Source: Candidatus Jordarchaeales archaeon (GTDB taxonomy: Archaea > Asgardarchaeota > Jordiarchaeia > Jordiarchaeales > Freyrarchaeaceae). Taken from it: DNA of 32,000 nucleotides. Position numbers and translations under genes: made by a program. The stretch spans positions 14,356-46,355 of the forward strand of contig JAWAHN010000002.1 in assembly GCA_038889235.1 (NCBI GenBank), given 5' to 3'. The notes below the pieces were generated by a model that searched no databases, had not been told where the DNA came from, and saw only the letters and a list, made by a program, of their open reading frames with translations. Below are positions 458 through 26,318 of this stretch, in pieces; the first letter of the stretch is position 1, and each line of letters begins with the position of its first letter.

Positions 458-3301
458 TCAAGGCATCCTACTGAGCATCTGCTCGAGCTCCCTGATCTTC
501 CTAAGCGCCTTCCTCATAAGGAAAGTGTACTCCTCCTCGCTCATCCTCCCGAGCGAATAGTACTCGTGCAGGCTCTGAAGGTACTTCCGAATCCGCTGTA
601 TCTTGGCGGCAACCTCCTCGCGCGAAGGAACCTCCTCGTCCCCCCCTCTACCAACACCGCCCTCAACCTCCTCAGCCTCTCTCTTCGCCGGCGGCGCCTC
701 AGCCGCGGTTTCAATTGGAGCCACCGGCGGAGCTACAACCCTCCTCCTCTCCCTCCTCGGTGGGGGCACCCACTCCCCCTTCACCTCTTTCAGCTCCTTC
801 TCCAAGGCACCTTTAAGCCTAGCCGCCTCCTCCCTACTGGGAGCGGTGACCTCAACGGCGACCAGCGTAGCGTCAACACTCAAACCCACTGCTGCAGCCA
901 GCCTCGCCGCACCTCTCCCCGCCAGGACCACTACCTCCTCCCCGGGTTGCTCGGAGACCTCCCATCCTTGGGACGCCAACACCTCCTTCAGCTTCCCGAC
1001 GACGAGCGACGGGTTAACTTTAACAGCCAACTGGAACCCCGACGACTCGGCCTTCTGCGACGGGTAGAGGTGTTCGTGAAACCTGTACTTAACCAGCCTG
1101 GAAAGGTAGTCGAGCGCCAAATCCTGCGGCACGTCGAGAACCCTGACGCCCACTGTTGGCTCAATCGTGGCTTCAGGCGGCCTAGCAGCCTCGCCCCCCT
1201 CCACGCCCCTAAATATATCCACCGCCTTTGTTTCGCTTACTTCAGACGGCTTAGCAGCTCCCTCAGCAGCCTCACCTCCTACCCCTTCAGCCGCTGTGCT
1301 GGGTGTGGCCTCCCTTCCGGCGTGTTTGCTCACACGCGGCCTAACCTTCACCACGAAGGCTCTCCCGGTCTCCGCCGACACGTCTGAGACCACTGCTACC
1401 CCGGTCGGAAGTCTGCGTATTAAGTCCTCAGCCAATTTTGGAACCACGTTAGGCGACCTCCTCCTGAAAGCCTCCACGTCCGCCTCGAAGACCAGTCTGT
1501 GTGCGATCACCACGTCTACTTGGGACAACACGCGGTCGTCTGTGGCTGAGGGCTGCTGTGTGGCGAGGACGAGGGCACACCCAGGCTTCCTCCCGAGAGT
1601 GGCGTACTCCACTAGAGGCTTTGAGGCAGCGGTCTCCCCCTTGGCTGGGATTAGCGTGTGCGCCTCGTCCACCATGAGCCACGTGACAGGTATACCCCCC
1701 GCCCCCTTACGCCCCGCCTCCTCAGCCCTCGCTTCCCTTTTCCTCCTCTCCAGTATCTTCCTCGCCAGCAGTCCTACCACGAGCCCCCGCAGCTCCCCGG
1801 TCAGCGTGCTGACATCTACCACCGACACGGTGTTCGGCTTAACTATTTCCTCCAAGGGTGTGCCTTCCTTCGAGAAAATCCCCCACCCCTTTGCCGCCAG
1901 CAGTCTCGAAACCACCGCCCTCCTCGTGTCCGGCTTAAACCCCCTCTCACGCGACAGTATCTCCTTTGACGTCTCAATGCACTCGATTAAGTCGTCGACG
2001 GAGTACTCGTCACCCTTACCCTCAACCTTCACCTCTCTCCCTTCTATGAAGGCGGCATACCCCTCCCTAACCTGTACCAGTGCCTTCTCGATCAGAAGTC
2101 CGGGTGGGCTGAACCTTTCAACACCGAAAGCGTAACACCAGTCGTCAACCGTCAAGTCCGACGGCTTCACGGAGAACGGCACATCCCTAGTTGTCTCCGG
2201 CAGCTCTCCATAAACCCCCAACGGGACGAAGACCCTGACATTGCTAAACCCCTTAGGCTCCAGCCCCCACTCCCTAACCCTCCTCAGCTCATCCGCCTCG
2301 CTGCTCGGCTGCTTCACGCTCCAGAACACACCAATCGGGTCAACTATGACGACCGCCACCCCAAGACCTGAACGCGCAATCTCCTCGGCTAGGACGCCCA
2401 GCGTGTAGGACTTCCCCGACCCCCGCTGGCCGCATATGAAGACAACGTGCGGCTTAAGCACGTCGAGAAGCACAGGGCGCCCCGCCAGCTCCCCCCTCTC
2501 CCATACGCGTCCAATATAGGCGAGCCCACGGCTCACCTCGCGCTCCTCCCTAGTCCTGCCGAGCACCACCCCCTCCCCCACCTCGTCCAACATCACCTCC
2601 AAGGGTGCCCCAACATCGAACACGTCTCCCGGAGCATCCCTCCTCCGCGCCCTCAACTCCCCTAAGAGAGCGGAGAGAGCCCTCCATACGTCTTCAGCAT
2701 TGTCCAAGCTCAGGGATTCAAACACCTTCTCCCGGTCACGCACCCCTTCCGGGTAAAAATTCGGGTCGAAGTTGCAGACCTCCCAGCATGCGAGCGCGGC
2801 ATCCTCTCCAAGCACGCCTGCTGCTTCATCGAAAAACCTTCTCTCTCCCGTCGCCCCGTAGAGCGCCAGAACCCCCCTGGCCCTCTCCACCCCGCTCAGC
2901 CTGTCCACAGCCTCCCTCATCTTCGACAATAACTCCCCACGCCCGGTAGCCCAGTAGACCTCCAGGAGTACTTGGAGGAGTGCCACGTCGACGTACGTTG
3001 TTCTGAAGGCGTAGTCGGCCAGTCTTCCAAGTGCCTCCTCAGTCCTCCCCCCGGGAGCCAGCCTTAGGGCGCGCGCTGCAGCGTTCAGCCTGCCCCCCGC
3101 ACTTCCTCCTTCAAGTATCATGCCGGCCAGCTTGTCCGCTTCGGCCACCGCTCTCTCCAAGAACTCTCTTCTACCGGTCAGCTGGTAGACTGCAGCGAGG
3201 GCGCAGGTTCCCTCCCCTCCCGAGAGGCTTAACACGTCAACCTTTCCCAGAATGGTGTGGAGTAGCTCGCAGACGGGTCTTCCTCTTTCAAGCATAGGCA
3301 A
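458..3301 (-). CDS. Multidomain HerA/FtsK-superfamily ATPase (DUF87/COG0433-like core) with N-terminal helical repeats and C-terminal alpha/beta plus SHOCT-like modules
   Basis: 947-aa ORF with PHVVFICGQRGSGKS (Walker A), IVDPIG, WLMVDEAH (Walker B), GRKPG and LATQQP motifs typical of HerA-like ATPases. Start is TTG 3301 or ATG 3295. Confidence 0.85.
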   Translation of the reverse strand: MPMLERGRPVCELLHTILGKVDVLSLSGGEGTCALAAVYQLTGRREFLERAVAEADKLAGMILEGGSAGGRLNAAARALRLAPGGRTEEALGRLADYAFRTTYVDVALLQVLLEVYWATGRGELLSKMREAVDRLSGVERARGVLALYGATGERRFFDEAAGVLGEDAALACWEVCNFDPNFYPEGVRDREKVFESLSLDNAEDVWRALSALLGELRARRRDAPGDVFDVGAPLEVMLDEVGEGVVLGRTREEREVSRGLAYIGRVWERGELAGRPVLLDVLKPHVVFICGQRGSGKSYTLGVLAEEIARSGLGVAVVIVDPIGVFWSVKQPSSEADELRRVREWGLEPKGFSNVRVFVPLGVYGELPETTRDVPFSVKPSDLTVDDWCYAFGVERFSPPGLLIEKALVQVREGYAAFIEGREVKVEGKGDEYSVDDLIECIETSKEILSRERGFKPDTRRAVVSRLLAAKGWGIFSKEGTPLEEIVKPNTVSVVDVSTLTGELRGLVVGLLARKILERRKREARAEEAGRKGAGGIPVTWLMVDEAHTLIPAKGETAASKPLVEYATLGRKPGCALVLATQQPSATDDRVLSQVDVVIAHRLVFEADVEAFRRRSPNVVPKLAEDLIRRLPTGVAVVSDVSAETGRAFVVKVRPRVSKHAGREATPSTAAEGVGGEAAEGAAKPSEVSETKAVDIFRGVEGGEAARPPEATIEPTVGVRVLDVPQDLALDYLSRLVKYRFHEHLYPSQKAESSGFQLAVKVNPSLVVGKLKEVLASQGWEVSEQPGEEVVVLAGRGAARLAAAVGLSVDATLVAVEVTAPSREEAARLKGALEKELKEVKGEWVPPPRRERRRVVAPPVAPIETAAEAPPAKREAEEVEGGVGRGGDEEVPSREEVAAKIQRIRKYLQSLHEYYSLGRMSEEEYTFLMRKALRKIRELEQMLSRMP

Positions 3302-5903: not shown

Positions 5904-7401
<1,498 letters not shown>

Positions 7402-7405
7402 CCGT

Positions 7406-7444
7406 GGGTTTGGGCTGTGCGGTTTGGTTTGGGCTTTCCTTGGG
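7406..7444 (+). other. 3' arm of the pre-16S processing stem (BHB)
   Basis: GGGTTTGGGCTG-TGCG-GTT-TGGTTTGGGCTTTCCTTGGG is the reverse complement of 5824-5862 apart from the two bulges. Confidence 0.9.
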
Positions 7445-7623
7445 TTCGGGTTTTCTGTTTGTTTTCGTTGTTGTTTTATGTGGAGTGTATTCTCTTTTTG
7501 CTTGTGTGTTTGGTGGGCTGTTTTAGTGGTTTGTGGGTGTTTTGCTGTGTTGTTTTGTGGGTTTTTGGTGGTTTGTGGTCGGTTTGTTTGGGTTGCTTCT
7601 CGTTTGAATTGTTTTGGGTGTTG
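7441..7623 (+). other. Low-complexity G/T-rich non-coding tract downstream of 16S
   Basis: Hand count gives 162 of 180 bases G or T over 7441-7620. Confidence 0.85.
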
Positions 7624-8793
7624 TTAGTGTGGTTTTAGTGGGGTTATGATGGCTGTTAGGGGTCCTTGTGGTGTGTGTGCTTTTTCTGAGACTATTTTTT
7701 GTATTCCTGCTGCTTTCGCTATTTGTTGGGTTATTTCGTCTAGGCTTATGTTGGTGTAGAGTGCTATGGTGTGGTTTTCTCTCATTCTTGGGAGGAATTG
7801 TAGTAGTAGTGGGTTTGCTTGTTTTCCGGTTTTGGGGTTGCATGGTGTTACCAGTATTCTTCTGCTTTCTGGTGTTGTTGCTGTTTTTTCGGTTGCGTAT
7901 TGGAGCTGGTTTACTGTTACTTTTTCTCCTAGGTCTGTTGTTCCTTCGTAGTTTTCGAGTTCTTCTACTAGTTCTTGGTCTGGTTGGAATGGTTCTGGTT
8001 TGTGGATTTTGAGCACGAGGTATAGTGGTTCGGGGTATTTTTCCGCGGCTTTTTTGGCCCTGCTGGCTGCATCTTTCACTGTTGCTGCCTCCACGATTAC
8101 GGGGCCTCCTGTGGTTTTCCTTTTTCCTCCGGTTGTCGGGGTTGTGGTTTGGCTTAGCGCGCTTTTCAGCTCTTCTTCGGCTGTCTTGTAAATGTGTGCT
8201 GACGCTGATATCGTGGTGGTTGTCCCAACGGATTCCACTCCTTTAATGTGTGAGGCTGCCTCTGTGAGGAAGGCCATGTTTATCCCTGCCACGTCTTCCG
8301 GCCATGCTCTCGCCATGTCGTTGCTTCTGATGTACGCGATGGCGTTGACCGTGTCTCCAAACCTGTGGAGAATTATCATGCTTATGCATGGCGGGTTAGG
8401 GTTGGAGGTGTCGGACGCCGGGTTCCAGAACTGTATCAGGGCGGTGTCGCTCCTCTTGAGCGCCTCTCCCGCTTTCACGACTTGGTTGACCCCGAACCTC
8501 TTTCTCGCGCACCACCCGTAGGTGTAGGTGTGCCCGCCTTTTTCAGCCGTCAGGTACTGGGGTATGTAGCTTTCCTTGAGCGTTTTCTCGTCCATTCCTA
8601 TGTAGCCGCGGGGGAGTATGGGTCCGCTCCTCCATGCTGTTAGGTGTATCACGCATCCTATTGTTTCGAGCGTCTCCTGCCTTTTGTCTTCCGTCGTCAC
8701 GGGTATGCCTTTCTCCAGTATCAGCCTGTTAGCCTGCCTCCAGGCTGCGTCCACGTGGCGCGCTCTTATAACGTATGGGCCGTAGGGTTTCAC
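7624..8793 (-). CDS. Thymidylate synthase-fold protein, tandem domains (catalytic N-domain plus degenerate C-domain)
   Basis: YTYG, NQV, FWNP, PPC(136), RSND(156-159) and SAHIY(198-202) are in the N-half. A second degenerate copy carries NQL..PESRR..NP..LLLQFLPR. GTG start overlaps the upstream stop (GTGA). Confidence 0.82.
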   Translation of the reverse strand: MKPYGPYVIRARHVDAAWRQANRLILEKGIPVTTEDKRQETLETIGCVIHLTAWRSGPILPRGYIGMDEKTLKESYIPQYLTAEKGGHTYTYGWCARKRFGVNQVVKAGEALKRSDTALIQFWNPASDTSNPNPPCISMIILHRFGDTVNAIAYIRSNDMARAWPEDVAGINMAFLTEAASHIKGVESVGTTTTISASAHIYKTAEEELKSALSQTTTPTTGGKRKTTGGPVIVEAATVKDAASRAKKAAEKYPEPLYLVLKIHKPEPFQPDQELVEELENYEGTTDLGEKVTVNQLQYATEKTATTPESRRILVTPCNPKTGKQANPLLLQFLPRMRENHTIALYTNISLDEITQQIAKAAGIQKIVSEKAHTPQGPLTAIITPLKPH

Positions 8794-10391
8794 TTTGCCT
8801 CCCTCACCTTATAGTATGGGTGGACTGGCCTAGGAAGTGTTCCGAGGACGTTGCGTGCCTCATCCGCCACGGCGGCTTCGGCTGCTGCCACTAGTGGGAA
8901 GACTTTCTCCGCGTTCCTGATGGGCCCGTAAAGATTGAGGTCCACTCCGTATAGTGACGGTAGAGCGTATATGAAGGAGAAGTCCATTTTCTGTCTGAGC
9001 TCGCGCGGCACCCCTGCAACCATGTTGTGTATGCCTATGGCTGTAGGGTAGCCGTAAAGCTCTTTAAACACCCACGCGGCGTGAAGTGCCTCTATGCCGC
9101 CCTCACCGAGTATCGGGACTCCTGGGTCCAGTATGGCTCCCTCAACAACCCCCCCAACCCCTGACAGCATAGTTTCAGCCTTCTTCAACCTTTCCTCTAG
9201 CGTGAAGCCGTAAGCCAGGATTATGGCGTACCTTACCGGCGCTATTCTGTGTAGGAGCTCAGTCTCCCTCCCACCGGACCCCGTAACCGAGTTGTACACG
9301 GTTCTGTGATCCAGCCCCACCTCCTTCGCCGTCTCCATCGCTTCGACGCGCGCCTCGAGACTTGTCGAGTCAATTATTATAGGCGCGTCTGTCACATCTG
9401 CTACGAAGAGCAGATACCTGGATAGTGCTTCACCCGTCTCGCCAACAACGTGGACCATTGATGGTATGCAGTACTCGTCTGAGAGCTCCGCCTGTCTGAC
9501 AACAAGCCCCTCGGCGGCCTCCTCGTCGAAGACCCCTCTAACTGGGTCCTTAACCACGGGATCCTTCCTGTAGAACAGCGTGCCAGCCAGAACAATGGAG
9601 TACTCACCCCTCTGCCCGCCGAGCTTAACCCCCGCCACGTCGTAAACCCTCAGCTCACTTCTCCTATAGAACAGTGCGCTCAAGGGCTCAGCCCCCCTCT
9701 CCCTCCACCATCCCCCCTCCATTAGGCGTGCAAGCGCCCCCCTCCAGTCGTACTTCTCCTCTTCGAGGGGCGGAATCAGGGGTGGCTCAGGGTACTCTTC
9801 AACATGCCTCTCGGCGAGCAGGCGCATTTGCGCCACTATCTTCTCCGGGCTCCTTTCCCCCCGCAAGTCCACCAGTTCGACCTGCCTCCTAAACCTCTCG
9901 ACGACCACGTGTGGCTCCCCCACCCTGAAGTACTTGGGGTGAAGGAATGGTATAGTCCCCTCGCTCCCGATAACCCTGTAATCCTGCCCTATGCCGTTTT
10001 TGTAGAGGGCCACGAGCGTCTGTCCCGGGGCGTGCCCCACAACCTCCTCACCACAGACGACTAGAAACCTTATTCTGTTGTTGGAAACTATGTTCTGAAT
10101 AACCCTGGCAACCCCGTCGTTCTCCGTCTCACACGGCCCAGCTATGGCTACGAGGTCGGCTGCCAGAGAAACAATTTTCTCCGGCAGGTCGTGCGAGCCA
10201 CACGTGACCACAGCGAAAGCCGCGTCATCCCTCCCAACCACGTAGTCCCCTGAAATGTACGGCCATTTCGCCACATCAACCACCGCGTTGAAAGGTGTTC
10301 GCCCAAACAACACGGCTACATCAAACTCAGAAAGAGCCGAGTTACATTTTTTACGCTCGGACTCAGCCCCTCCCGGGTTTAAGGAGCTCAC
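8790..10391 (-). CDS. MtrA-MtrH fusion (corrinoid-binding MtrA domain plus methyl-tetrahydromethanopterin:corrinoid methyltransferase MtrH domain)
   Basis: N-half: WPYISGDY..G, AVVTCGSH, GPCETEN.G..RVIQNIVSNNRIRFLVVCGEEVVGHAPGQ (corrinoid His kept), IGSEGTIPF. C-half: VYDVAGVKLGGQRGEY..VLAGTLFY, IIIDST, VYNS. Confidence 0.9.
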   Translation of the reverse strand: MSSLNPGGAESERKKCNSALSEFDVAVLFGRTPFNAVVDVAKWPYISGDYVVGRDDAAFAVVTCGSHDLPEKIVSLAADLVAIAGPCETENDGVARVIQNIVSNNRIRFLVVCGEEVVGHAPGQTLVALYKNGIGQDYRVIGSEGTIPFLHPKYFRVGEPHVVVERFRRQVELVDLRGERSPEKIVAQMRLLAERHVEEYPEPPLIPPLEEEKYDWRGALARLMEGGWWRERGAEPLSALFYRRSELRVYDVAGVKLGGQRGEYSIVLAGTLFYRKDPVVKDPVRGVFDEEAAEGLVVRQAELSDEYCIPSMVHVVGETGEALSRYLLFVADVTDAPIIIDSTSLEARVEAMETAKEVGLDHRTVYNSVTGSGGRETELLHRIAPVRYAIILAYGFTLEERLKKAETMLSGVGGVVEGAILDPGVPILGEGGIEALHAAWVFKELYGYPTAIGIHNMVAGVPRELRQKMDFSFIYALPSLYGVDLNLYGPIRNAEKVFPLVAAAEAAVADEARNVLGTLPRPVHPYYKVREAK

Positions 10392-13130: not shown

Positions 13131-14675
13131 GTGTACATCTTCGACACCACGCTCCGCGACGGGGAACAGATGCCAGGGGTTGCTCTAACCACCGAGGACA
13201 AGAAGAAGATAGCGGAGCAGCTGGCAAAGCTGGGCGTCGACATCATAGAGGCTGGAATGCCCGTCGTCTCCAAGGGAGAAAAGGAGGCCGTTAAGGACAT
13301 AGCGAACATGAGACTGGGGCCAGAGATATGCGCCCTCGCCCGCACCACAAAGGGGGACATAGACACAGCGCTCGAATGTGACGTCGACAGGGTTCACGTG
13401 TTCATAGCGACATCCGAACTGCACATGAAGTACAAGCTGAAAATGAAGCCCGAAGAAGTCCTAGAGAAGGCGGTTGAAGCAGTAGAGTACGTGAAAAGCC
13501 ACGGCGTGAAGGTGGAGTTCTCCGCTGAGGACGCAACTAGAAGCGACCTCGAGTTCCTTAAGAAAGTGTACAGGAGCGTCGTCGAGGCAGGCGCCGACGT
13601 GATAAACATCCCGGACACTGTTGGAGCAACGATACCCACCGCATACGCATACATAGTCGAGGAGATCAAAAAAGCCGTCGGCCCGGGTGTTGTAATATCC
13701 GTGCACACTCACAACGACTTCGGACTTGCGACTGCAAACGCCCTAGCGGCTGTGGAGAAAGGAGCACAACAAGTTCACGTCACGGTGAACGGCATAGGGG
13801 AGAGGGCTGGAAACGCCTCACTCGAAGAAGTGGTGATGTCCCTCTTCGCACTCTACGGCGTGAAAACGAACATTAAAACGACACAGATATACGAGACCGC
13901 GAAGCTCGTTGAGCGGTTGACTGGAGTCAGACTTCAGCCGAACAAGCCGATAGTGGGCGCCAATGCGTTTAAGCATGAAAGCGGAATACACGCCCACGCT
14001 GTGCTAGAAAACCCGCTCACATATGAGCCGCTAACCCCTGAGCTCATAGGACGCAAGAGGGTAAGCATAGTCGACGAGGCAATAGTCATAGGGAAACACA
14101 CAGGAGGCCACTCGCTCAAAGCTAAACTGGAACAGATGGGGATACACGTTACGGAGGACCAGCTCAAAGAGATACTAGATAAGATAAAGGAAGTCGGCGA
14201 CAAAGGTAAGGCGGTTACAGACGCGGACATAATAGCAATAGTAGAGGACATAGTGGGAAGAGTGGCTGAAAGTGAGAGGGTATTGAAGCTCGAAGAGTTA
14301 ACCGTCGTGACAGGAAAGGGAATAACGCCGACGGCGACTGTGAGAATCAAAGTGGGCGGCAAGGAGAAAATAGCGTCAGCGATAGGAGTAGGACCCGTTG
14401 ACGCAGCATGCAACGCTCTTCAAATCGCTGTCAAGGAGTTCCAGGAAATGACGCTTGAAGAGTACAACTTGGAAGCGATAACCGGCGGAACCGACGCACT
14501 CGGCTTCGTCACGGTGAAGCTCAAGGACAAGGATGGGAAAATATACATCGCGAAAGCCGCCGACGGGGACATAGTTATGGCATCCGTGCAAGCGATAATA
14601 AACGCCGTGAACAAAGCTTTACTTATGAAAGGATATAGGACGGGTGCCGAGGCAGACAAGCAGCAGCAAAACTAG
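13131..14675 (+). CDS. 2-isopropylmalate synthase / (R)-citramalate synthase (LeuA/CimA family) with C-terminal regulatory domain
   Basis: FDTTLRDGEQ, HTHND.GLA.AN, GIGERAGN, HESGIH, GKHTG and G.GPVDA. LeuA versus CimA cannot be resolved by eye. Confidence 0.92.
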   Translation: MYIFDTTLRDGEQMPGVALTTEDKKKIAEQLAKLGVDIIEAGMPVVSKGEKEAVKDIANMRLGPEICALARTTKGDIDTALECDVDRVHVFIATSELHMKYKLKMKPEEVLEKAVEAVEYVKSHGVKVEFSAEDATRSDLEFLKKVYRSVVEAGADVINIPDTVGATIPTAYAYIVEEIKKAVGPGVVISVHTHNDFGLATANALAAVEKGAQQVHVTVNGIGERAGNASLEEVVMSLFALYGVKTNIKTTQIYETAKLVERLTGVRLQPNKPIVGANAFKHESGIHAHAVLENPLTYEPLTPELIGRKRVSIVDEAIVIGKHTGGHSLKAKLEQMGIHVTEDQLKEILDKIKEVGDKGKAVTDADIIAIVEDIVGRVAESERVLKLEELTVVTGKGITPTATVRIKVGGKEKIASAIGVGPVDAACNALQIAVKEFQEMTLEEYNLEAITGGTDALGFVTVKLKDKDGKIYIAKAADGDIVMASVQAIINAVNKALLMKGYRTGAEADKQQQN

Positions 14676-26195: not shown

Positions 26196-26318
26196 AGCCC
26201 CGGCCGGGCTTTGAACCCGGGACCTTCTCATTTCTGGCATACCACCACTATAACGGGTACCAGTGAGACGCTCTAACCAGGCTGAGCTTTCCCGCTATAG
26301 ATGAAGGGGTACCGGGGC
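26196..26318 (-). tRNA. tRNA-Thr(GGU) with two introns: 22 nt at 8/9 (26289-26310) and 26 nt at 37/38 (26232-26257); CCA not encoded
   Basis: Removing both inserts gives a full cloverleaf: acceptor GCCCCGG/CCGGGGC with U73, D-stem GCUC/GAGC, anticodon stem UCUCA/UGAGA with loop CUGGUAA, and T-stem CCGGG/CCCGG with loop UUCAAAG. Both inserts form 4-bp helices with 3-nt bulges. Confidence 0.9.

Follow-up and report, generated by a model that had tools for sequence, protein, structure and literature searches.

Textbooks describe thymidylate synthase (TS) of the ThyA type as an obligate homodimer whose subunits share their active sites, and its half-the-sites reactivity is debated. In the E. coli enzyme, R126' and R127' of one protomer contact the phosphate of deoxyuridine monophosphate (dUMP) bound in the other, and pairing a wild-type chain with an R126E-R127E chain yields a heterodimer in which just one site works (Maley et al. 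1995; Falk et al. 2016; reviewed in PMC5981203). In this study, we analysed a window of 32,000 nucleotides of DNA from a Candidatus Jordarchaeales archaeon, a member of the Asgard archaea (positions 14,356 to 46,355 of the forward strand of contig JAWAHN010000002.1, assembly GCA_038889235.1), and examined a TS gene on its minus strand at positions 7624 to 8793 (positions are counted from the first letter of the window). We found that its predicted product has two TS-fold domains, of which the first carries the catalytic residues and the second the Arg-Arg pair. This arrangement is probably an intramolecular pseudo-heterodimer, a single chain with one composite active site.

The features of the gene are given below. 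Conservation refers to a family alignment of 25 two-domain sequences from five Asgard classes, and E. coli equivalences refer to a comparison alignment of canonical ThyA, short archaeal TS, N-domains and C-domains.

7624-8793 (-): whole TS gene, 389 codons plus a TGA stop, with a GTG start (open reading frame list and translation)
8149-8793 (-): N-domain, residues 1-215, a complete short archaeal TS catalytic domain
8386-8388 (-): Cys136, the nucleophile (E. coli C146) in a PPC motif, invariant in 25/25 and matching the PC of canonical and short TS in the alignment
8317-8328 (-): R156-S157-N158-D159 (E. coli R166-S167-x-D169), for phosphate and ribose binding, invariant in the alignments
8293-8295 (-): Asp167 at the position of E. 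coli Asn177 (pyrimidine specificity), from the HMMER alignment to a solved TS
8188-8196 (-): H200-I201-Y202 (E. coli H207 and Y209), with H200 and Y202 invariant in the alignment
8446-8454 (-): R114-S115-D116, in the place of the (S/T)RR expected in the N-domain; the Arg-Arg pair is lost and the site varies in the family
8107-8148 (-): inter-domain linker, residues 216-229, with the part of low model confidence, poor conservation and variable length
7627-8106 (-): C-domain, residues 230-389, a putatively catalytically dead minimal TS core, from profile and structure matches
7858-7866 (-): S310-R311-R312, the kept Arg-Arg motif (E. coli S125-R126-R127), invariant in the 25 sequences
7807-7815 (-): N327-P328-L329, the former Pro-Cys site, where Leu replaces the nucleophile in the alignment

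A sequence-only reading of this DNA had described a first domain with Cys136, RSND and HIY and without SRR, and a second domain that has lost the Cys (ANPLLLQF) and RSxD and kept PESRR with R311 and R312. All of these were found at the residues it gave. In the 389-residue protein, PPC136IS lies at residues 134-138, RSND at 156-159 and HIY at 200-202, and in the C-half PESRR lies at 308-312 and ANPLLLQF at 326-333. LKRSDTALIQFWNP occupies residues 112-125, where canonical and short archaeal TS carry (S/T)RR in the alignment. Full-length homologues of 390-430 residues are found in Asgard archaea, and the nearest are annotated Jordarchaeia or Freyarchaeota, which agrees with an Asgard source of the DNA.

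The N-domain was matched by Pfam PF00303 over residues 87-219 (42.6 bits against a cut-off of 24.3, E 5e-11). In NCBIfam, positions 1-197 of the 201 positions of TIGR03283 aligned with residues 7-205 at 97.9 bits; the equivalog cut-off of 174.55 was not reached. Because TIGR03283 aligns end to end, residues 1-215 make up a complete short TS rather than a fragment. The comparison alignment showed that the domain retains Lys/Arg at the R21 position, the tyrosine of the YG motif, Pro-Cys136, R-S-N-D and H.Y, which would give it the full catalytic set (Cys136, R156/S157/D159, Y92 and H200/Y202). Residues 4-222 of the full AlphaFold2 (AF2) model superposed on TS-fold structures with VIA-align Z scores of 19-22 and a root-mean-square deviation (rmsd) of 1.9-2.8 Å. 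In a quick tree, the N-domains formed one clade inside the short archaeal TS radiation, with a Shimodaira-Hasegawa-like approximate likelihood ratio test (SH-aLRT) value of 97, or 96 when two distant two-domain proteins (P0037 and P0038) were added. A single clade of N-domains fits a single origin of the two-domain architecture.

To characterise the C-half, a profile (A2) was built from C-domains only, using 15 sequences from 15 genomes. It matched 109 PDB sequences, with a best E value of 4.6e-4. All 60 of these matches that were listed have the TS fold (59 thymidylate synthases and one designed hydrolase on a TS scaffold), and they align in the register DQI...SRRI..NP...P(C)..QF. In a library of 1.84 billion representative proteins, the profile gave 28 matches, all of them family members or PF00303 carriers, and among them were short TS of 207-252 residues at a library-wide E of ~1e-5. 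In a local search, short single-domain Asgard TS were matched at E 1e-10 to 5e-7 over ~95 positions.

The structure predictions agreed with the profile. Folded alone and with no templates, the C-domain reached a predicted local distance difference test score (pLDDT) of 91.8 in AF2. Foldseek with this model returned TS-family chains only, 396 of them at E <= 1e-3 and the best at 4e-7. VIA-align placed it on TS structures at Z 13-16 and rmsd 2.3-2.5 Å, with 146-150 of 161 residues aligned over the whole TS core, and in the full AF2 model the order of its secondary structure elements repeats that of the N-domain. In the alignment, (S)RR and the strand scaffold NP..NP..QF are preserved in the C-domain, while RSxD, the Asn177 position and H.Y are missing and Leu329 replaces the Cys. 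N327 and P328 are nearly invariant to invariant in the 25-sequence alignment and the genome loci. Profile matches and comparison of the template-free model, two independent routes, thus indicate that the C-half is a TS-fold domain, and that two homologous domains of the same fold sit in one chain. The sequence-only reading had staked its case on a TS fold of the C-half; since both the C-domain profile and the lone AF2 model match TS only, the C-half does not fail in this respect. A search of the ESM Atlas gave generic viral TS clusters only, below 0.9, and no structure of this protein.

We then compared the conservation of the two domains. C136, R156, S157, N158, D159, H200 and Y202 of the N-domain and S310, R311 and R312 of the C-domain are invariant over the 25 sequences, and S310-R311-R312 is also invariant in 15 genome loci. 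In every single-domain TS examined, the Arg motif occurs together with the Cys. ThyA has the Arg-Arg pair on each subunit; here only the C-domain carries it, and the corresponding site of the catalytic N-domain reads R-S-D or varies. The mean pairwise identity is 40% for the C-domain versus 59.5% for the N-domain, and the invariant columns number 11 of 160 versus 47 of 215, SRR making up three of the C-domain's 11. In these sequences the C-domain thus evolves faster than the N-domain, yet never loses SRR. P0037 and P0038, distant relatives at 24% identity that are not recognised by Pfam, have the same reciprocal split, with [ST]RR in the C-domain. Metagenome and viral contigs scanned for these two proteins gave no match.

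Gene duplication and fusion followed by reciprocal loss had been proposed from the sequence. The pattern of loss was borne out by the 25 sequences and by P0037 and P0038. The second domain may have arisen by tandem duplication or by fusion of a paralogue; in hhalign, the C-domain aligned with the N-domain profile at E 0.038. This value is too weak to call the C-domain a duplicate of this very N-domain.

The full-chain AF2 model had a pLDDT of 90 and a predicted template modelling score (pTM) of 0.92, and only residues 220-227 fell below a pLDDT of 50. A pTM of 0.92 requires a fixed and confident arrangement of both domains. Confidence in the Arg loop was 95-97 (in blocks) in the full chain versus 83-89 in the isolated C-domain. 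The distribution of residues demands that an N-domain pairs with a C-domain, since a pair of N-domains would be without trans arginines and a pair of C-domains would have no use for them. Two full-length copies predicted as a homodimer gave an interface score (ipSAE) of 0.00, below the mark, which is evidence neither for nor against dimerisation.

We propose that the sheets of the two domains lie back to back in a single chain, like the two subunits of ThyA. R311 and R312 would then fill in the N-domain's phosphate site, and each chain would have one active site. The C-domain would consist of a central beta-sheet, flanking helices and the Arg-Arg loop, its own catalytic residues all gone. This dead domain would also shield the hydrophobic face of the sheet, which a TS monomer on its own could not leave exposed. 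The identity of both domains, the conserved reciprocal pattern, the gene linkage and the gene inventory are observed here, whereas we infer the arginine donation, the intramolecular geometry, the substrate and the one-carbon (C1) donor alike; the last two are taken up below.

The two-domain TS gene is the only PF00303 match in its own genome, which is 95% complete. ThyX, thymidine kinase and PF00383 (dCMP/cytidine deaminase family, dCMP being deoxycytidine monophosphate) were not found in this genome, and two homologues of deoxycytidine triphosphate (dCTP) deaminase (DCD) were. ThyX was not found in five relatives either, three of which have closed genomes. By gene content, the two-domain TS would be the sole candidate of its genome for C5-methylation of a pyrimidine deoxynucleotide. 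As the sole TS-type gene in a cell with no ThyX or thymidine kinase and with dUMP available, it is most likely the cell's source of thymidylate. Its most likely reaction is the conversion of dUMP to deoxythymidine monophosphate (dTMP), and the dUMP could be supplied by the DCD homologues.

The residue at the Asn177 position complicates this assignment. In the HMMER alignment, Asp167 aligns with the Asn of PFNIAG in a solved TS. All 26 two-domain members of the family have Asp here, whereas the short, Loki-type and MtrA-fused TS that we examined invariably have Asn; among the outliers, P0037 has Asn and P0038 has Asp. Exchange of Asn for Asp at this position switches a canonical TS from dUMP towards dCMP (PMC8670742). 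Because of Asp167, the label of a plain dUMP-specific thymidylate synthase is unsafe, and a role as sole source of dTMP is in tension with this cytosine-type residue. The closest structural neighbours of the N-domain in VIA-align were the cytosine-nucleotide enzymes AfhB (Z 22.4) and MilA (Z 20.3), compared with Z 19.3 for ThyA, and the compactness of AfhB may contribute to its higher score. We also considered a route from dCMP over 5-methyl-dCMP to dTMP through dCMP deaminase. This route found no support, as the genome has no PF00383 match.

Two features lie directly upstream of the TS gene.

8790-10391 (-): gene for a fusion of an MtrA-like domain with MtrH, 533 residues, from Pfam; its TGA overlaps the GTG of the TS gene (GTGA)
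8798-8802 (-): GGAGG, Shine-Dalgarno-like, 4 nucleotides upstream of the GTG and within the end of the MtrAH gene, from reading the sequence

The 533-residue protein was matched by Pfam MtrA (E 4e-42) and MtrH (E 9e-58), and the corrinoid ligands His84 and Glu54 are retained in its MtrA part (relative to 5L8X). The TS gene overlaps its gene by 4 nucleotides, so that the TGA stop and the GTG start share GTGA, and GGAGG may act as a Shine-Dalgarno site for the TS gene. We found MtrAH directly upstream on the same strand in 17/17 related loci from Jord-, Frey-, Atabey-, Borr- and Sifarchaeia. An MtrA-like domain is also fused straight to a single TS domain in the candidate phyla radiation (CPR), in DPANN archaea and in two Asgard genomes. 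Such MtrA-TS fusions were seen at L036:2848-4185 (+) and L037:3449-4882 (-) and in P0028-P0030 and P0041, often with a C-terminal pterin-binding DUF4346.

These observations suggest that the two-domain TS probably works with the translationally coupled MtrA-MtrH corrinoid/pterin methyltransferase. We know of no TS-fold enzyme with a corrinoid donor. We tentatively consider that the two-domain TS and MtrA-MtrH might together methylate pyrimidine deoxynucleotides at C5 by a third route, linked to corrinoid, although we regard this as doubtful. In such a route, MtrH would pass the methyl group of methyl-tetrahydromethanopterin (methyl-H4MPT) to the cob(I)amide of MtrA, and the N-domain, with Cys136 on C6, would take the methyl from methyl-Co(III), with no pterin oxidised. 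The C-domain would give the phosphate arginines and perhaps a docking face, and Asp167 may mean that dCMP is the substrate. The Asgard MtrAH fusion has been described before with an unknown methyl acceptor, and thymidylate was unmentioned (PMC11291895).

Several points weigh against the single-chain pseudo-heterodimer, and against dTMP as its product. The C-domain alone found no TS match in Pfam and NCBIfam, where it gave only chance-level matches (DUF7636 at E 0.0098, Secretin and RM44). The hhalign comparison of the C-domain with the N-domain profile has the right register and only the marginal E value given above. The placement of R311 and R312 next to Cys136 is deduced from the pTM of 0.92 and the logic of conservation, and AF2 may copy the placement of a TS dimer from the solved dimers it learned. 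The conserved SRR could bind another phosphate-bearing ligand or a partner protein. Finally, the product is perhaps not dTMP, because Asp167 comes together with cytosine-nucleotide enzymes as top structural neighbours.

Four other explanations were weighed against the single-chain pseudo-heterodimer. The main role of the C-domain could be docking or regulation, with MtrH or the corrinoid domain of MtrA as a possible partner; SRR would then bind a ligand other than the substrate phosphate (for instance a pterin phosphate or one in the corrinoid nucleotide loop), and the N-domain would manage with R156 and K37 alone. The constant position of MtrAH directly upstream in all 17 loci speaks for this reading; the fusion of an MtrA-like domain to TS in other lineages makes physical contact plausible, and a new ligand could occupy the cleft of the dead active site. 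However, the MtrA-TS fusions retain an (S/T)R(R/Q) motif in their only TS domain, so that association with MtrA needs no second TS domain, and SRR of the C-domain stands in the exact register of the TS phosphate-binding loop. We consider a mainly docking or regulatory C-domain unlikely; docking and arginine donation by the C-domain are mutually compatible roles.

The same residues could also be brought together in a domain-swapped dimer, in which two chains exchange partners, each N-domain pairing with the C-domain of the other chain, so that two composite sites form. The residue logic demands an N-C pair and is silent on pairing within or between chains, and the linker is flexible (pLDDT below 50 at 220-227) and varies in length across the family. 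The single-chain model with its pTM of 0.92, however, already satisfies the pairing, and nothing observed needs a second chain, which leaves the swap a rather improbable arrangement.

Less probable still is a canonical ThyA-like homodimer through the N-domains, to which the C-domains would be peripheral additions. The ThyA-fold enzymes characterised so far all dimerise as identical chains across the central sheet (PMC5981203). But here the N-domain has no Arg pair to lend, so that both sites of such a dimer would lack one in trans, and the invariance of SRR would be left unexplained in a domain able to pair only with another dead C-domain. An artefact or decaying gene, that is, a mis-assembled or frame-fused thyA tandem whose second copy is a pseudogene remnant, would account for a second domain without any catalytic residues, but the conservation data effectively refute it: one unbroken open reading frame has the same architecture in 17 independent genomes including three with closed chromosomes, which excludes an assembly artefact, the C-domain folds at pLDDT 92 with 11 invariant columns across five Asgard classes, and a ~97%-identical strain differs by 14 synonymous and 8 conservative changes with the frame intact. 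The single-chain pseudo-heterodimer with one composite site is thus kept as the probable arrangement.

The distribution of TS-type genes was examined in 301 Asgard genomes, in which four groups of open reading frames were found: short TS of ~210-220 residues, Loki-type TS of ~335-350 residues with an internal insertion, MtrA-TS fusions, and two-domain TS of ~390-460 residues. The two-domain TS is confined to a few families in this sample. Among proteins of 88-336 residues, the C-domain profile found no match, and thus no evidence of a natural form split over two genes.

The Loki-type TS that we inspected have 333-337 residues (L031-L034 and L040, in genomes G206, G146, G266, G103 and G227). 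Their first ~36 residues and the residues from ~203 on match the short TS profile, which indicates an internal insertion of at least 100 residues. Their (S/T)RR, PPC Cys motif and Asn177 are intact. Among the library matches of profile A2, P0032-P0034 and P0036 are short pieces that resemble truncated gene calls, and a further library match of 216 residues (P0035) has four tandem copies of a ~55-residue TS fragment that covers the Arg-loop region only.

The locus is present in DNA runs of hot-spring metagenomes. In RNA run X4, a sediment metatranscriptome from another study, we found the ~97%-identical strain, with contigs over 7429-8422 and 8478-9151, the second of which spans the junction of MtrAH and TS. 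RNA run X7 did not cover the locus. The contigs from the X4 RNA library are a weak hint and prove neither transcription nor a single transcript.

The surroundings of the TS gene in the window are as follows.

458-3301 (-): HerA/DUF87-type ATPase of 947 residues
3307-3927 (-): ESCRT-III/Snf7 homologue adjoining this ATPase, an Asgard-typical cell-biology gene
5904-7400 (+): complete archaeal 16S rRNA gene, convergent with the TS gene
7417-7623: intergenic stretch from the 16S gene to the TS stop, strongly G/T-rich on the plus strand
26204-26288 (-): tRNA match of 29.1 bits against an Rfam gathering score of 29 bits, covering model positions 9-63 of 71

The related strain in run X4 has an insertion of 7 nucleotides (GGTTTTT) after position 7559. 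No 23S rRNA gene was found anywhere in the 32-kb window, and thus the rRNA genes appear unlinked. The tRNA match may be an atypical or intron-containing tRNA.

In the literature searched, neither a tandem, pseudo-dimeric or single-chain TS nor a link between MtrAH and TS was found described, which is no proof of absence. Among the closest described enzymes is the homodimeric ThyA of E. coli, L. casei and human (PF00303), which the two-domain TS resembles in the predicted fold of both domains, in Pro-Cys, R-S-x-D, H..Y and the YG tyrosine, and in an Arg-Arg loop supplied by a partner. ThyA has two identical chains and two sites, whereas here two unlike TS units would share one chain and one site. 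Asp stands here for Asn177, and the protein is without the folate-binding insertions and the C-terminal tail that bacterial and eukaryotic ThyA carry.

A state with one working site is known from the engineered one-site ThyA heterodimers (wild type with R126E/R127E), in which one protomer gives the Arg pair and the other the working pocket. Those are re-assorting laboratory mixtures of two separate full-size chains (PMC5981203), whereas the protein described here would be natural and fused, with the donor trimmed to a 160-residue core. If the proposed arrangement is true, a natural enzyme that hard-wires the asymmetric state, with one site and an arginine-donor pseudo-subunit, bears on the half-the-sites debate, and it would give mechanistic studies a stable 'one-site' TS that needs no engineering.

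The N-domain also resembles the short methanogen-type TS (TIGR03283, ~200-220 residues), whose whole profile it fits, and the best sequence matches of the C-domain are of this type too. Those enzymes are single-domain and keep SRR and Asn177, and the two-domain protein adds a domain of 160 residues. Unlike for the two-domain TS, no MtrAH gene was found in the fetched flanks of the short TS examined. The two-domain TS is the only recognisable thymidylate-forming enzyme in these Asgard lineages, and its cytosine-type residue and its operon with a corrinoid methyltransferase bear on the old question of the C1 donor of archaeal short TS.

Asp at the Asn177 position is shared with the dCMP hydroxymethylase of phage T4 (Asp179), the CMP hydroxymethylase MilA and the dCMP hydroxylase AfhB. 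Those cytosine-nucleotide enzymes are homodimers with an identity of 18-20%, whereas the genome context here points to housekeeping supply of dTMP.

The MtrA-TS-DUF4346 fusions of CPR, DPANN and some Asgard members likewise tie a short archaeal-type TS to an MtrA-like domain. They differ in being fused, in having a single TS with its own Arg motif and Asn177, and in the extra pterin-binding DUF4346, whereas here the partners are joined in an operon. The core methionine synthase MesA offers a precedent, itself predicted: it is a biosynthetic methyltransferase for which MtrA would be the methyl source (Price et al. 2021, PMC7857596), but it has another fold and its acceptor is homocysteine. For the two-domain TS, the pairing with MtrAH makes a possible B12-dependent route to thymidylate testable.

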